Positions 19,339-23,291 of a DNA stretch of 64,000 nucleotides are shown one piece after another. The notes below the pieces were generated by a model. That model had not been told where the DNA came from and did not search any database. It saw only the letters and a list, made by a program, of their open reading frames with translations. The position numbers were made by a program, and so were the translations under genes. Every line of letters starts with the position of its first letter. Within the stretch, counting starts at the first letter, position 1. Source of the stretch: Escherichia coli (GTDB taxonomy: Bacteria > Pseudomonadota > Gammaproteobacteria > Enterobacterales > Enterobacteriaceae); NCBI RefSeq assembly GCF_003334355.1, contig NZ_QOWP01000005.1. One strand, given 5' to 3'.

Positions 19339-19405
19339 ACCGACTCCACAGCGCGAAATGAACAATTATCTTACGCTGTGAAGTCGGGTTTGTCTGCGCA
19401 GGCTA

Positions 19406-21385
19406 TCAGTGAGATTTGACTGATTTTACCCCCAGCCAGTCAATAATCCCCTGTGCCGCATGACGTCCTTCTGCCATTGCGGTAACCACCAGATCCGCAC
19501 CACGCACGGCGTCACCACCAGCGAAGATTTTCGGATTGGTGGTCTGGTAACGGTACTGGCTTTCCACATCCGCGATGATGCGGCCCCATTTGTCTACCGT
19601 TACACCGTGCGACTCCAGCCACGGCATCCCGTGCGGATTGAAGCCAAACGCCATAATCACCGCGTCGGCTGGCATGACAAATTCACTGCCTTCCACCGGC
19701 ACTGGACGCCGACGCCCCTGGGCATCCGGCTCGCCAAGACGCGTGCGCAGGAAACGAATCCCGCAGACGTGACCTTGTTCATTCAGCTCAAGCGCCACCG
19801 GCTGGACGTTAAATTCGAAGTTGGCCCCCTCTTCGCGGGCGTTCTTCACTTCTTTCTTCGAGCCTGGCATGTTAGCTTCATCACGACGATAAGCGCAGGT
19901 GACGTTACTCGCGCCGTGGCGCAGTGCGGTACGCACACAGTCCATCGCGGTGTCGCCGCCGCCCAGTACCACGACGTTAAGTCCGGCGGTATTGATAAAC
20001 GGCTCTTCCGGTAGCTCTTCGAGCCCCATCACCTGTTTAGTGTTGGCAATGAGGAACGGCAGCGCGTCATAAACGCCCGGCGCATCTTCATTGGGTAAAC
20101 CCGCTTTCATGGAACGGTAAGTGCCTACGCCAACGAAGACCGCGTCGTATTGTTCCAAAAGCGAATCCAAAGAGACATCTTTACCCACTTCACAATTGAG
20201 TTCGAAGTGAATCCCCATCGCGCTGAAGATTTCCCGACGGCGTGCCAGCAGGGATTTATCCAGTTTGAAAGAAGGAATGCCGAAAGTGAGCAAGCCACCG
20301 ATTTCTGGATGGCGATCGTACACCGTCACCCCCACGCCATTGCGGGTCAGAACATCCGCACAGGCCAGCCCTGCCGGACCTGCACCGATAATCGCCACCC
20401 GCTTGTCCACTTTGGTGACATGGCTTAAGTCAGGACGCCAACCTTTCGCCAACGCCTGATCTGAAATGTAGCGTTCAATGTTGCCGATAGTTACCGCGCC
20501 GTGCTCATCGCGAATAGTACAGGCACCTTCACACAAACGGTCTTGCGGACAAACGCGTCCGGTAATTTCCGGCAGGGTGTTGGTCTGGTGAGAAAGCTCG
20601 ACGGCGGCGTCGATGTTTCCGGCTTTCACCAGTTCAATCCACTGCGGTATATGGTTATGCAGCGGGCAGGTCCATTCACAAACGCTGTGCTCGCCGCACT
20701 TAAGGCAGCGCGAGGCTTCCCGTTGTGCCTGGTCGGCGCGAAATGGCAGATAAATTTCATCAAAACCGGTTTTGCGCGCTTCAATCGCCAGTTTATCCGG
20801 CTCGCCACGCGCGGGCGTTGCCTGCATTTGTTCGACTTTACTCATTACCGGCATTTCTTGCGCCGCGGTACTGGCATGCCACGGTTGATGTTCCTGACGC
20901 GCGGTGCGCAAGCGGCGGGATTTCGCTATGCCGGAGAGTGCGACGTCAGTGACCAGTTGCAGCGCGTCCGCCGGGCAATTCTCAACACAGGCAGGACCGT
21001 TTTCGCGCCCCGCACAAAGGTCGCATTTATGCGCCGTGGCTTTTACTTTTCCTGCCGCGACGGGTGTCAGGACGATTTGCATCGTACCAAAAGGACAGGC
21101 CACCACGCAGGATTTACAGCCAATACACTTTTGCTGATTGACCTGAATGCTGTCATCAACGTGGCTGATTGCGCCATTAGGGCAGCTACGGGCGCAGGGC
21201 GCATCTTCACAATGGTGACAGGTCACTGCACTACGTTGCTGTTGATGTTTGATAACCGTAATTCGGGGATGAAAATGGTGTTGGCTCAGGACATGTTGCT
21301 CATCATTGTGAGCCATGACACAGGCGATTTCACAAGCATGACAACCCAGACATTGCTGACTGTTGGCCATAATAAAACGATTCAT
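19406..21385 (-). CDS. aegA: AegA, Fe-S cluster-containing oxidoreductase (ferredoxin-like N-terminus fused to GltD-like NAD(P)H/FAD domain)
   Basis: 659-aa ORF; multiple CxxCxxCxxxCP motifs (CLGCHACEIAC, CIGCKSCVVACP) followed by GAGPAG dinucleotide-binding motif. Confidence 0.9.
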   Translation of the reverse strand: MNRFIMANSQQCLGCHACEIACVMAHNDEQHVLSQHHFHPRITVIKHQQQRSAVTCHHCEDAPCARSCPNGAISHVDDSIQVNQQKCIGCKSCVVACPFGTMQIVLTPVAAGKVKATAHKCDLCAGRENGPACVENCPADALQLVTDVALSGIAKSRRLRTARQEHQPWHASTAAQEMPVMSKVEQMQATPARGEPDKLAIEARKTGFDEIYLPFRADQAQREASRCLKCGEHSVCEWTCPLHNHIPQWIELVKAGNIDAAVELSHQTNTLPEITGRVCPQDRLCEGACTIRDEHGAVTIGNIERYISDQALAKGWRPDLSHVTKVDKRVAIIGAGPAGLACADVLTRNGVGVTVYDRHPEIGGLLTFGIPSFKLDKSLLARRREIFSAMGIHFELNCEVGKDVSLDSLLEQYDAVFVGVGTYRSMKAGLPNEDAPGVYDALPFLIANTKQVMGLEELPEEPFINTAGLNVVVLGGGDTAMDCVRTALRHGASNVTCAYRRDEANMPGSKKEVKNAREEGANFEFNVQPVALELNEQGHVCGIRFLRTRLGEPDAQGRRRPVPVEGSEFVMPADAVIMAFGFNPHGMPWLESHGVTVDKWGRIIADVESQYRYQTTNPKIFAGGDAVRGADLVVTAMAEGRHAAQGIIDWLGVKSVKSH

Positions 21386-21590
21386 AACGACCTTCTTTTT
21401 TGGTTGTAAAAACCTTATTCTTTATATGAGTGTTGTTATTACCCGACTTACAGGGGAATCGGCAATGTTCATGTGCCCAGAATAAGTAACTATTTCGCTA
21501 TAAACTGTGGCAGATCAAATAATCCCATCACTGACTAAATTGCGTTTCAGCGAACTGGAACATTAATGATTTTTTGTGGAGAAGACGCGT

Positions 21591-23291
21591 GTGATTGTTA
21601 AACGACCCGTCTCGGCCAGTCTGGCCCGGGCCTTTTTTTACATTGTGCTGCTGTCGATTCTTTCCACGGGTATCGCTCTGCTAACTCTGGCGAGCAGTTT
21701 GCGCGACGCTGAGGCTATCAATATTGCCGGATCGCTGCGTATGCAGAGTTACCGCCTGGGCTACGACTTGCAAAGTGGCAGTCCACAACTCAATGCACAT
21801 CGCCAGTTATTTCAGCAGGCACTGCATTCACCGGTATTAACCAACCTCAACGTCTGGTATGTGCCAGAAGCAGTAAAAACTCGCTATGCGCATCTGAATG
21901 CCAACTGGCTGGAGATGAATAATCGGCTCAGCAAGGGCGATTTGCCGTGGTATCAGGCCAATATTAATAATTATGTTAATCAGATAGACCTGTTCGTACT
22001 GGCTTTACAGCACTACGCTGAACGCAAAATGCTGCTGGTGGTGGCGATTTCCCTGGCTGGCGGCATCGGTATTTTCACGCTGGTCTTTTTTACTTTGCGC
22101 CGCATACGCCATCAGGTGGTTGCCCCGCTGAATCAGCTGGTTACCGCCAGTCAGCGTATTGAACACGGGCAGTTCGACTCGCCGCCGCTGGATACCAACC
22201 TGCCGAATGAGCTTGGTCTGCTTGCAAAAACCTTTAACCAGATGTCGAGCGAGCTGCATAAATTGTACCGTTCGCTGGAAGCGTCAGTAGAAGAAAAGAC
22301 CCGCGATCTCCACGAGGCCAAGCGTCGTCTGGAGGTGTTGTATCAGTGTTCGCAGGCGCTGAACACTAGCCAGATTGATGTGCATTGTTTCCGCCATATT
22401 TTGCAGATTGTTCGCGACAATGAAGCGGCTGAATATCTGGAGTTAAATGTCGGTGAAAACTGGCGGATTAGCGAAGGGCAACCAAACCCGGAATTGCCGA
22501 TGCAGATTTTACCGGTGACAATGCAAGAGACGGTTTACGGCGAACTGCACTGGCAAAATAGTCACGTTTCATCATCAGAACCGCTACTTAACAGCGTTTC
22601 GTCGATGCTGGGACGCGGTTTGTACTTTAATCAGGCGCAGAAGCATTTTCAGCAATTATTGTTGATGGAAGAACGTGCGACCATCGCCCGCGAATTGCAC
22701 GACTCGCTGGCTCAGGTACTTTCTTACTTACGTATCCAGTTGACGTTACTGAAGCGTTCGATACCGGAAGATAACGCCACCGCACAAAGTATCATGGCCG
22801 ATTTTTCCCAGGCGTTGAATGATGCTTATCGGCAGTTACGCGAGCTGTTGACTACTTTCCGCCTGACGCTGCAGCAGGCGGATCTCCCCTCCGCATTGAG
22901 GGAAATGCTGGATACGTTACAAAATCAAACCAGCGCCAAACTGACCCTCGACTGCCGTCTGCCAACCCTGGCACTGGATGCGCAAATGCAGGTGCATTTG
23001 TTGCAAATTATTCGCGAAGCGGTGCTGAATGCGATGAAGCACGCCAACGCCAGCGAAATCGCCGTCAGTTGCGTCACCGCGCCGGACGGCAATCACACGG
23101 TTTATATCCGTGATAACGGGATTGGTATCGGTGAACCGAAAGAACCCGAAGGTCATTATGGTCTGAATATCATGCGCGAACGCGCGGAACGGCTAGGTGG
23201 GACGCTGACTTTTTCACAACCTTCCGGCGGCGGCACGTTAGTGAGTATTAGCTTTCGCTCTGCGGAGGGTGAGGAAAGTCAGTTAATGTAA
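21591..23291 (+). CDS. narQ: nitrate/nitrite sensor histidine kinase NarQ
   Basis: ORF track 21576..23291; start placed at GTG giving MIVKRPVSASLARAFFYIV (566 aa); H-box HDSLAQ present. Confidence 0.92.
   Translation: MIVKRPVSASLARAFFYIVLLSILSTGIALLTLASSLRDAEAINIAGSLRMQSYRLGYDLQSGSPQLNAHRQLFQQALHSPVLTNLNVWYVPEAVKTRYAHLNANWLEMNNRLSKGDLPWYQANINNYVNQIDLFVLALQHYAERKMLLVVAISLAGGIGIFTLVFFTLRRIRHQVVAPLNQLVTASQRIEHGQFDSPPLDTNLPNELGLLAKTFNQMSSELHKLYRSLEASVEEKTRDLHEAKRRLEVLYQCSQALNTSQIDVHCFRHILQIVRDNEAAEYLELNVGENWRISEGQPNPELPMQILPVTMQETVYGELHWQNSHVSSSEPLLNSVSSMLGRGLYFNQAQKHFQQLLLMEERATIARELHDSLAQVLSYLRIQLTLLKRSIPEDNATAQSIMADFSQALNDAYRQLRELLTTFRLTLQQADLPSALREMLDTLQNQTSAKLTLDCRLPTLALDAQMQVHLLQIIREAVLNAMKHANASEIAVSCVTAPDGNHTVYIRDNGIGIGEPKEPEGHYGLNIMRERAERLGGTLTFSQPSGGGTLVSISFRSAEGEESQLM

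Follow-up and report, generated by a model that had tools for sequence, protein, structure and literature searches.

The closest described system is the aegA (b2468)-narQ (b2469) pair of Escherichia coli K-12, in which the two genes diverge from a 205-bp spacer (Chiang et al. 1992; Cavicchioli et al. 1996). The title of the second of these papers (J Bacteriol 178:6968) already names anaerobiosis and nitrate as controlling aegA. AegA has a paralogue in E. coli, YgfT (UacF), with the same fusion of a ferredoxin module and a GltD-like module. The ygfT gene sits in a purine-catabolism cluster and diverges from uacT, whereas aegA diverges from narQ. Among regulated promoters, those of dmsA and frdA, which are activated by FNR and repressed by NarL, carry an FNR box close to the consensus at about –41.5, and NarL heptamers have been mapped around their start sites. 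The aegA gene is likewise induced anaerobically, nitrate repression has been reported for it, and an FNR-type box is located upstream. However, the aegA box has three mismatches, its occupancy by FNR is weak, and a NarL site is not identifiable. An aegA-lacZ fusion is reported to be induced 11-fold anaerobically and repressed 5-fold by nitrate, with dependence on fnr, narX, narQ and narL.

The window analyzed here is a stretch of 64,000 nucleotides of an E. coli genome (assembly GCF_003334355.1, contig NZ_QOWP01000005.1). In a comparison with complete genomes, a 2.4-kb stretch of the locus shares 100% identity with several E. coli chromosomes. It is matched in all 5,426 of these genomes, with at least 80% query coverage in 5425. 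The locus is the long-known chromosomal aegA-narQ locus in its ordinary arrangement. No difference from K-12 was found, and this is at most another strain of E. coli. The two genes and their divergence, the fusion in AegA, and the response of aegA to anaerobiosis and nitrate have been on record since the 1990s and are already known; the anaerobic control of aegA, published by Cavicchioli et al. in 1996, is no discovery. FNR ChIP-chip peaks at the spacer were published in 2007 and 2013 (Grainger 2007, PMC1802558; Myers 2013). We place a probability of about 0.85 on the overall reading that this is the aegA-narQ locus, that the spacer contains both promoters and gains polymerase in the absence of oxygen, and that an FNR box is the likeliest direct oxygen input.

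Organization of the locus and gene products

The aegA coding sequence occupies 19406-21385 on the minus strand and narQ begins at 21591 on the plus strand, which agrees to the base with the divergent arrangement described in the initial annotation. The intergenic region (21386-21590) has the claimed length of 205 bp and a G+C content of 37.6%.

AegA has 659 residues, with a HydN-like multi-[4Fe-4S] ferredoxin module followed by a GltD-type Fe-S/FAD/NAD(P) module. Its whole length (residues 1-659) is matched by the NCBIfam equivalog NF009408 (formate-dependent uric acid utilization protein AegA) with 1395.7 bits, above the cutoff of 1003 bits, and the RefSeq product name agrees with this role. 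The proposed fusion is borne out by the domain matches in both NCBIfam and Pfam. Residues 1-163 correspond to the HydN-like ferredoxin and residues 187-653 to gltD_gamma_fam (TIGR01318, 878 bits), and the Pfam domains are a Fer4 dicluster (11-145), Fer4_20 (205-315) and Pyr_redox_2 (329-640). The YgfT model also matches residues 1-650, with 874 bits; AegA is under the YgfT equivalog cutoff of 1154. Papers that cite Iwadate and Kato 2019 implicate AegA in formate-dependent anaerobic urate degradation, and YgfT is implicated in the process together with AegA. The aegA product would then be a cytoplasmic iron-sulfur flavoprotein, with a HydN-like ferredoxin and a GltD-like NAD(P)H/FAD module, that takes part in formate-dependent anaerobic urate breakdown.

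The narQ coding sequence (21591-23291, plus strand, 566 residues) encodes the nitrate/nitrite sensor kinase. It matches the equivalog NF008184 with 930.3 bits (cutoff 553), and the score with the NarX model, 296.9 bits, is below the NarX cutoff of 578. The start is placed at the GTG codon at 21591 by the RefSeq annotation of an identical genome. Another in-frame GTG is located upstream at 21576; counted from that codon, the NarQ profile match begins at residue 7 of the reading frame, which aligns with profile position 2. A Shine-Dalgarno sequence, GGAG, is found at 21578-21581.

Oxygen response of the intergenic region

The initial annotation had named the spacer as a likely site of anaerobic regulation. 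This is upheld by published data, with FNR ChIP-chip peaks in two studies, a gain of σ70 and a rise of both mRNAs under anaerobic conditions. The σ70 ChIP-seq signal in the spacer is 294 aerobically and 912 anaerobically, a roughly threefold difference (Myers 2013 Table S2). The anaerobic peak is centered at 2583605, which is position 21443 of the window, and it is the only σ70 peak listed within the spacer. Comparison of aerobic with anaerobic mRNA gives a ratio of 0.40 for aegA and of 0.36 for narQ (Myers 2013 Table S12), so that both transcripts are about 2.5-2.8-fold higher anaerobically. The direction of the ratio was verified on two markers in the same table, yfiD (0.11) and acnB (6.6). 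In the mechanism that we propose, the 205-bp spacer would hold the promoters of both genes, and the higher polymerase occupancy in the absence of oxygen would raise both transcripts about 2.5-3-fold.

The FNR box

The candidate FNR box, TTGATCTGCCACAG, is located at 21505-21518 on the minus strand, has three mismatches to TTGAT-N4-ATCAA, and its center precedes the aegA ATG by 126.5 bp. The motif scan suggested for the E. coli spacer was uninformative, with no FNR or NarL pattern above chance. Two FNR matches with three mismatches are observed in the 205-bp AT-rich spacer, compared to 3.2 in shuffled sequences. The scan of E. coli alone can neither support nor refute the idea of anaerobic control; cross-genus footprinting can.

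In most of 78 orthologous loci, including loci that do not have narQ, the TTGATC box precedes the aegA ATG by about 115-126 bp. An alignment of 23 sequences at the genus level shows no variation in TTGATC or in the C of the right half-site and keeps the next A in at least 90%, and the spacer flanking the box is saturated with changes. In the dimer sites of FNR/CRP-type regulators, the key contacts are made at the G and C that are conserved here. It is only this conservation across genera, and not the E. coli spacer alone, that makes the degenerate box a credible candidate.

The FNR ChIP-chip peak of Grainger 2007 at aegA/narQ has exactly TTGATCTGCCACAG as its predicted site, with the position relative to a start site listed as 'Unknown'. 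The peak in Myers 2013 (Table S5) has a low signal, 0.30. In the FNR ChIP-seq data of the same study, none of three peak callers detects FNR at aegA/narQ and no PWM score is assigned, and both genes are absent from the table of expression in wild type versus Δfnr (Table S8). Weak binding of FNR to this evolutionarily fixed box would be the most likely direct oxygen input, and we infer that FNR acts directly through it.

The position of the box bears on how FNR might act. FNR promoters have the box centered at –41.5 (class II) or at –61.5 and further upstream (class I). No good –10 hexamer was found at the class II distance from the box. If aegA transcription starts near 21410, the box is at about –101, an unusual position for activation.

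The box is overlapped by a reported AtoC ChIP target (21513-21532).

Nitrate input

The only exact NarL heptamer in the spacer, TACTTAT (21482-21488, minus strand), is not kept even in E. albertii, and one such match is not above chance (p of about 0.16 by shuffling). No 7-2-7 inverted repeat with three or fewer mismatches was found in the E. coli spacer, and no positionally conserved TACYYMT heptamer or 7-2-7 site among the 78 orthologous regions. Nitrate input through NarL/NarP would operate without a recognizable site in the spacer.

Candidate –10 hexamers and the narQ start site

A conserved block, CATATAAAGAATAAGGTTT in the aegA sense, is located at 21410-21428 (A135 and T139 conserved) and contains –10-like hexamers on both strands. 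On the plus strand, TATTCT (21416-21421) is 7 nt upstream of the published narQ transcription start at 21428. On the minus strand, AAGAAT (21422-21417) or TATAAA (21426-21421) could serve aegA, for which a start near 21410-21414 is predicted. The aegA Shine-Dalgarno sequence, GAAGG (21391-21395, minus strand), is 5 nt before the ATG in the sequence and in the alignment.

Symmetric bidirectional promoters typically have a spacing of 18 bp between the two start sites; for aegA/narQ this spacing is a prediction. As in the promoters of this class described earlier (Warman et al. 2021; PMC12825309, PMC10268837), –10-like hexamers on opposite strands overlap here, at 21416-21422. TATTCT and AAGAAT are in the expected register, with A–11 of one paired with T–7 of the other. 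A start in the narQ direction has been published here; in contrast to those promoters, the start in the aegA direction is a predicted one. We infer that aegA and narQ have a symmetric –10 element in common.

The narQ start at 21428 (NC_000913.2 position 2583590; 43 reads) gives a leader of 163 nt (Kim 2012); it comes from an aerobic data set and was given to narQ by proximity only. It is only 43 bp from the aegA ATG, and therefore the two transcription units overlap and the narQ leader covers the whole aegA control region in antisense. This overlap would couple the two units physically, possibly together with a common symmetric –10 element.

The conserved elements persist in 26 loci where acrD, and not narQ, is the divergent neighbor. 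Because they are kept in these genera, the control elements belong to aegA. They are either older than the presence of narQ here or have outlived it.

Alternative explanations

Sharing of the spacer could be more apparent than functional. All conserved elements would then serve aegA, narQ would have a weak, roughly constitutive promoter near the aegA start, and its apparent anaerobic induction would be a passive by-product of polymerase recruitment to the symmetric –10 element. The retention of the conserved blocks where narQ is missing fits this explanation. Moreover, the FNR box and the narQ start are separated by anything from about 27 to more than 130 bp, depending on the genus, with no conserved promoter proximal to narQ, and the published start at 21428 adjoins the aegA start in a region with –10-like hexamers on both strands and a single listed σ70 peak. 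However, the nearly equal induction of narQ and aegA suits truly shared control as well, and NarL is said to regulate narQ, in a statement of Ravcheev 2007 that cites Darwin and Stewart 1995. The assignment of 21428 to narQ by proximity, from 43 aerobic reads, also weakens the argument. We regard this explanation as possible but doubtful.

The direct role of FNR can be questioned as well. The sequence TTGATC could be the –35 element of a σ70 promoter for aegA, with an 18-bp spacer, AATAGT (21494-21489) as the –10 element and a start near 21481. The FNR occupancy would then be incidental and the anaerobic induction indirect, and the conserved block at 21461-21480, just past the aegA start, would act as an operator or a leader element. 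TTGATC agrees with TTGACA at four of six positions, and AAATAG(T), 18 bp further downstream, shows moderate conservation. The ChIP-seq and expression data of Myers 2013, with FNR undetected and no FNR-dependent change, point the same way. However, a –35 hexamer does not need the right half-site, where the C is invariant and the A at least 90% conserved (xxCAx), and FNR has been reported at the spacer by two independent ChIP-chip studies. In addition, Klebsiella, Raoultella and Buttiauxella show poor conservation of the candidate –10, and the center of the anaerobic σ70 peak (21443) is about 40-45 bp to the aegA side of this hexamer. This makes the –35 assignment unlikely. Anaerobic control by ArcA or another global regulator in place of FNR is far less probable still. 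It would agree with the unchanged expression in the Δfnr comparison of Myers 2013, and TGTTA-like words are present at 21434-21438 and 21466-21470, but their spacing is not the 11 bp of ArcA repeats. The study of ArcA binding by ChIP and of expression (Park 2013) lists neither gene in any of its supplementary tables, and for other global regulators, the spacer has no IHF peak, as aegA/narQ are absent from Table S4 of Myers 2013. Direct FNR control through the conserved box is the preferred reading.

Other conserved blocks in the spacer

The most conserved block of the spacer, CTGGGCACATGAACATTGCC (21461-21480, minus strand), holds the dyad GGCA-N9-TGCC. Columns G80, C81, A82, G86, C89, T91, T92 and G93 are invariant in the 23-sequence alignment. 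RNAalifold finds only a 4-bp dyad, without compensatory changes, and there is therefore no evidence for an RNA helix; an Rfam search of the putative aegA leader gave no match at E ≤ 1. On these results we rejected a riboswitch or other conserved RNA structure within a long leader of aegA. A σ54 promoter was rejected as well, since the spacing in CTGGGCA...TTGCC is 14 bp and not 12 (TGGCAC-N5-TTGC); the sole published σ54 ChIP site nearby falls inside narQ. A leader peptide from the conserved ATG/TTG at 21472-21470 was also discarded. The length of this reading frame varies from 4 to 29 residues with only M-x-I-A kept, and the conservation is therefore at the DNA level.

The second dyad, with family consensus TGAAACGnAATTTCA, is located at 21535-21549 on the minus strand. 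Its E. coli version is TGAAACGCAATTTAG, in which the right arm has decayed, and the dyad is kept also where narQ is absent. In E. coli, GCTGAAACGCAATT (21536-21549) fits the Cra consensus, RSTGAAWCSNTHHW, at 13 of 14 positions. A Cra (FruR) operator was rejected here, as other genera keep a TGAAA-N5-TTTCA dyad and not the Cra arrangement, and aegA and narQ go unmentioned in the main text of the Cra ChIP-exo paper. PurR, ArcA, CRP, NsrR, TorR, IHF, Fis and ArgR, compared with the two dyads by their consensus sequences, gave no convincing fit, and aegA/narQ have no ChIP support for ArcA in the supplementary tables of Park 2013 or for IHF in Table S4 of Myers 2013. A comparison of the aegA and ygfT upstream regions, with the latter inspected by eye only, gave no convincing common motif.

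Tentatively, the dyads in CTGGGCAnnTGnACATTGCC (21461-21480) and TGAAACGnAATTTCA (21535-21549) could bind an unrecognized regulator, for example one responsive to urate, purine or formate, that controls aegA across Enterobacteriaceae. This suggestion would be combined with co-induction of aegA and narQ from one symmetric bidirectional –10 element and a narQ leader running antisense through all of the aegA control region, and we hold the combination to be a speculative one. The two unassigned dyads could help explain the regulation of the AegA branch of anaerobic urate metabolism, which is poorly understood.

A further conserved block, CGGGTAATAACA, is located at 21434-21445 on the minus strand. 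Its family consensus is GGTAAaTAcA, with G113 and A120 invariant.

Organization of the aegA-narQ locus

The aegA ORF (659 residues) occupies 19406-21385 on the minus strand, and the narQ ORF lies on the plus strand and ends at 23291. In profile searches, the aegA product matches the NCBIfam AegA equivalog ('formate-dependent uric acid utilization protein') over its full length with 1395.7 bits (cutoff 1003), and the narQ product matches the profile of NarQ (930 bits, cutoff 553) and not that of NarX. For narQ, ORF calling gives a start at GTG 21576, whereas the start is GTG 21591, with GGAG 9 nt upstream, both in the alignment to the profile and in RefSeq for E. coli ATCC 8739, an identical genome. 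With the start taken as 21591, the spacer between the two genes covers 21386-21590, exactly 205 bp. The ORFs, profile matches and RefSeq start show that the coordinates, gene names and spacer length of the initial annotation are all correct, as is its divergent arrangement of the two genes. Several E. coli chromosomes carry the 2.4-kb aegA-narQ stretch with 100% identity, and a match to it is present in 5426 of 5426 complete E. coli genomes. The neighbouring genes are tktB, ypfG and nudK to one side and acrD to the other.

The gene past aegA, nudK, is apparently transcribed from a separate promoter within the 67 bp between them (19339-19405), judging by a transcription start site (TSS) at 2581523 (window 19361; 161 reads, 23-nt leader; Kim et al. 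2012) and a sigma70 peak with anaerobic preference at 2581511 (window 19349; Myers et al. 2013). The start of nudK is TTG 19365 by ORF calling and ATG 19338 in RefSeq.

The NCBIfam and Pfam matches confirm the described fusion in AegA of a ferredoxin-like module to a GltD-type flavoprotein module. A HydN-like electron-transport protein module (residues 1-163, profile search), with Pfam 4Fe-4S dicluster domains at residues 11-145, is followed by a match to gltD_gamma_fam (residues 187-653, 878 bits), with Fer4_20 at residues 205-315 and Pyr_redox_2 at residues 329-640. The reaction of this GltD-like Fe-S flavoprotein is still unclear (PMC8097209). Its two-hybrid partners are HycB, HydN and YsaA, and FDH-H and hydrogen production do not require it (PMC6004506). 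According to papers citing Iwadate and Kato 2019, AegA and YgfT are implicated in anaerobic formate-dependent urate degradation.

Anaerobic control of the spacer

The proposal that the spacer is a site of anaerobic regulation is supported by published FNR ChIP-chip, sigma70 ChIP-seq and expression data. An FNR ChIP-chip peak was observed at aegA/narQ by Grainger et al. 2007 (PMC1802558), with a predicted site, ATAAACTGTGGCAGATCAAATAAT (window 21500-21523), whose position relative to the start is given as 'Unknown'. Myers et al. 2013 recovered this peak by ChIP-chip with a low average signal (0.30); it was missed by all three of their ChIP-seq peak callers and has no PWM score. By sigma70 ChIP-seq, the same study places a peak in the spacer whose value rises from 294 aerobically to 912 anaerobically. 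Its centre, 2583605, corresponds to window 21443, with the offset set from the narQ coordinates. In the table comparing aerobic with anaerobic expression, the ratios are 0.40 (aegA) and 0.36 (narQ). Its sheet is named 'Anaero_over_Aero', yet the marker genes (yfiD 0.11, acnB 6.6, hmp 2.7, iscR 3.0) show that the ratio is aerobic over anaerobic, so that aegA and narQ are about 2.5-2.8-fold up anaerobically, which fits the sigma70 data. Both genes are missing from the WT-versus-delta-fnr table of Myers et al. 2013, and Park et al. 2013 has no ArcA entry for either. NarL is given as a regulator of narQ in a secondary source, Ravcheev 2007, which cites Darwin and Stewart 1995.

The initial observation is confirmed and its interpretation supported, and the finding is already known at textbook level, the locus having been characterised in 1992-1996 and then revisited by genome-scale FNR studies. 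In the primary paper on the aegA locus, by Cavicchioli et al., an aegA-lacZ fusion is said to be induced 11-fold anaerobically and repressed 5-fold by nitrate, control reportedly being mediated by fnr, narX, narQ and narL. The remaining points (the exact aegA start, activation from a weak and distant FNR box, a NarL site and the binders of the two conserved dyads) are modest specialist questions.

The FNR-like box and other conserved blocks

A scan of 21386-21590 finds a single FNR-like site at up to three mismatches, TTGATCTGCCACAG (21505-21518), and one exact NarL heptamer, TACTTAT (21482-21488, minus strand); 7-2-7 sites at up to three mismatches are absent. Compared with 1000 shuffles of the spacer that preserve dinucleotides, no pattern is above chance: the FNR pattern was observed 2 times (shuffle mean 3.2) and the exact heptamer once (mean 0.17, reached in 16% of shuffles), and 7-2-7 sites were likewise not above chance. 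By itself, the scan of the E. coli spacer neither supports nor refutes the anaerobic-site idea.

The comparison across genera is more informative for the FNR-like box. Most loci, with or without narQ, carry it about 115-126 bp before the aegA ATG. It is further upstream in exceptions including several Buttiauxella, Mangrovibacter and Intestinirhabdus loci; Entomohabitans and two other Enterobacteriaceae loci lack it. In an alignment of 23 genus-level aegA upstream sequences (A1), every sequence has TTGATC and the right half-site C, and the next A is at least 90% conserved, while much of the remaining spacer is saturated by substitutions and indels (mean column identity 64%). FNR/CRP-type dimers contact the G and C positions conserved in the box. 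Such conservation argues for a genuine protein site rather than a chance match and, less strongly, against a bare -10/-35 promoter element. Across 78 upstream regions, neither NarL heptamers nor 7-2-7 sites recur at a conserved position, and the E. coli heptamer is not kept even in E. albertii in A1. An in vivo ChIP target of AtoC has been reported at GTGATGGGATTATTTGATCT (21513-21532, minus strand; PMC3118216), overlapping the left half of the box.

Several other blocks are conserved in the aegA sense. TGAAACGnAATTTCA (21535-21549), a strongly conserved TGAAA-N5-TTTCA dyad, is followed by TGAAAT in most genera; the right arm and this third repeat are partly lost specifically in E. coli and E. 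albertii. The most conserved block is CTGGGCAnnTGnACATTGCC (21461-21480), which holds a GGCA-N9-TGCC dyad. AAATAGTT (21488-21495), GGTAAaTAcA (21434-21445), CATATAAAGAATAAGGTTT (21410-21428) and the Shine-Dalgarno GAAGG complete the set. No E. coli regulator could be matched to either dyad; Cra and the other consensus sequences compared with them were rejected, as was a sigma54 promoter in 21461-21480, where the spacing is wrong. An Rfam search ruled out an Rfam family in the upstream region. A conserved RNA helix was also ruled out, and a comparison by eye showed no convincing motif shared with the ygfT upstream region.

A small ORF at 21422-21472 (minus strand; MNIADSPVSRVITTLI in E. coli) has as its start codon a conserved ATG/TTG within the most conserved block. 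Its length of 4-29 residues among orthologues rules out a conserved leader peptide and, with M-x-I-A alone kept, indicates that it probably encodes no functional peptide.

Promoter architecture

The narQ TSS of Kim et al. 2012 (NC_000913.2 2583590, 43 reads, 163-nt leader) corresponds to window 21428, 43 bp from the aegA ATG. From the sequence, the narQ -10 element would be TATTCT (21416-21421). The opposite strand of this block reads AAGAAT (21422-21417), whose A-11 and T-7 fall on A1 columns A135 and T139, which are invariant or nearly so, and TATAAA (21426-21421) is located in the same block. Start sites in symmetric bidirectional promoters are reportedly spaced by 18 bp, as Warman et al. 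are said to have described in 2021. In these promoters, as described by Grainger's group, A-11 pairs with the opposite-strand T-7, and the 21416-21422 block has the same register. This register predicts an aegA start near 21410, which would put the FNR-like box around -101 and the most strongly conserved dyad around -60. A second possibility is that aegA has a class II FNR promoter with a start near 21470, but A1 has no conserved -10 at the right distance. The centre of the anaerobic sigma70 peak (21443) falls between the two candidate starts and favours neither. Whether aegA starts near 21410 or near 21470, the narQ leader spans all of the aegA control region in antisense orientation, and the two units are therefore physically coupled.

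The only sigma70 consensus match in a promoter scan of 21200-21800 is TTGATA-16-GAAAAT (21249-21276, plus strand), a match to the consensus only, on the narQ strand within the 5' end of the aegA coding sequence.

Gene order across genera

One scan of representative bacterial genomes gave 80 aegA loci, from Enterobacteriaceae and one outgroup. The divergent upstream neighbour is narQ in 51 of them, with spacers of 151-717 bp, in genera including Escherichia, Citrobacter, Salmonella, Enterobacter, Leclercia, Phytobacter, Buttiauxella, Atlantibacter, Mangrovibacter and some Kosakonia. A further 26 loci lack narQ and have acrD as the divergent neighbour, in genera including Klebsiella, Raoultella, Kluyvera, Pseudocitrobacter, Superficieibacter and some Kosakonia. 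The same picture emerges from the orthologue table for E. coli and K. pneumoniae in Kim et al. 2012, in which the orthologues of b2468 and b2470 are adjacent and b2469 has none. The aegA upstream footprints are kept in the acrD-neighbour loci despite the absence of narQ. narQ was therefore gained or lost exactly at the aegA-acrD junction.

Two sites were observed within narQ. The sequence at 22255-22271 (minus strand) reproduces the sigma54 binding motif ACGGTACAATTTATGCA exactly and is the intragenic site IA19 of Bonocora et al. 2015, antisense within narQ and directed towards aegA, which they list as the downstream gene (859 bp). A weak TSS of Kim et al. 2012 at 2584993 (3 reads; window 22831, plus strand) is assigned to acrD with a 624-nt leader.
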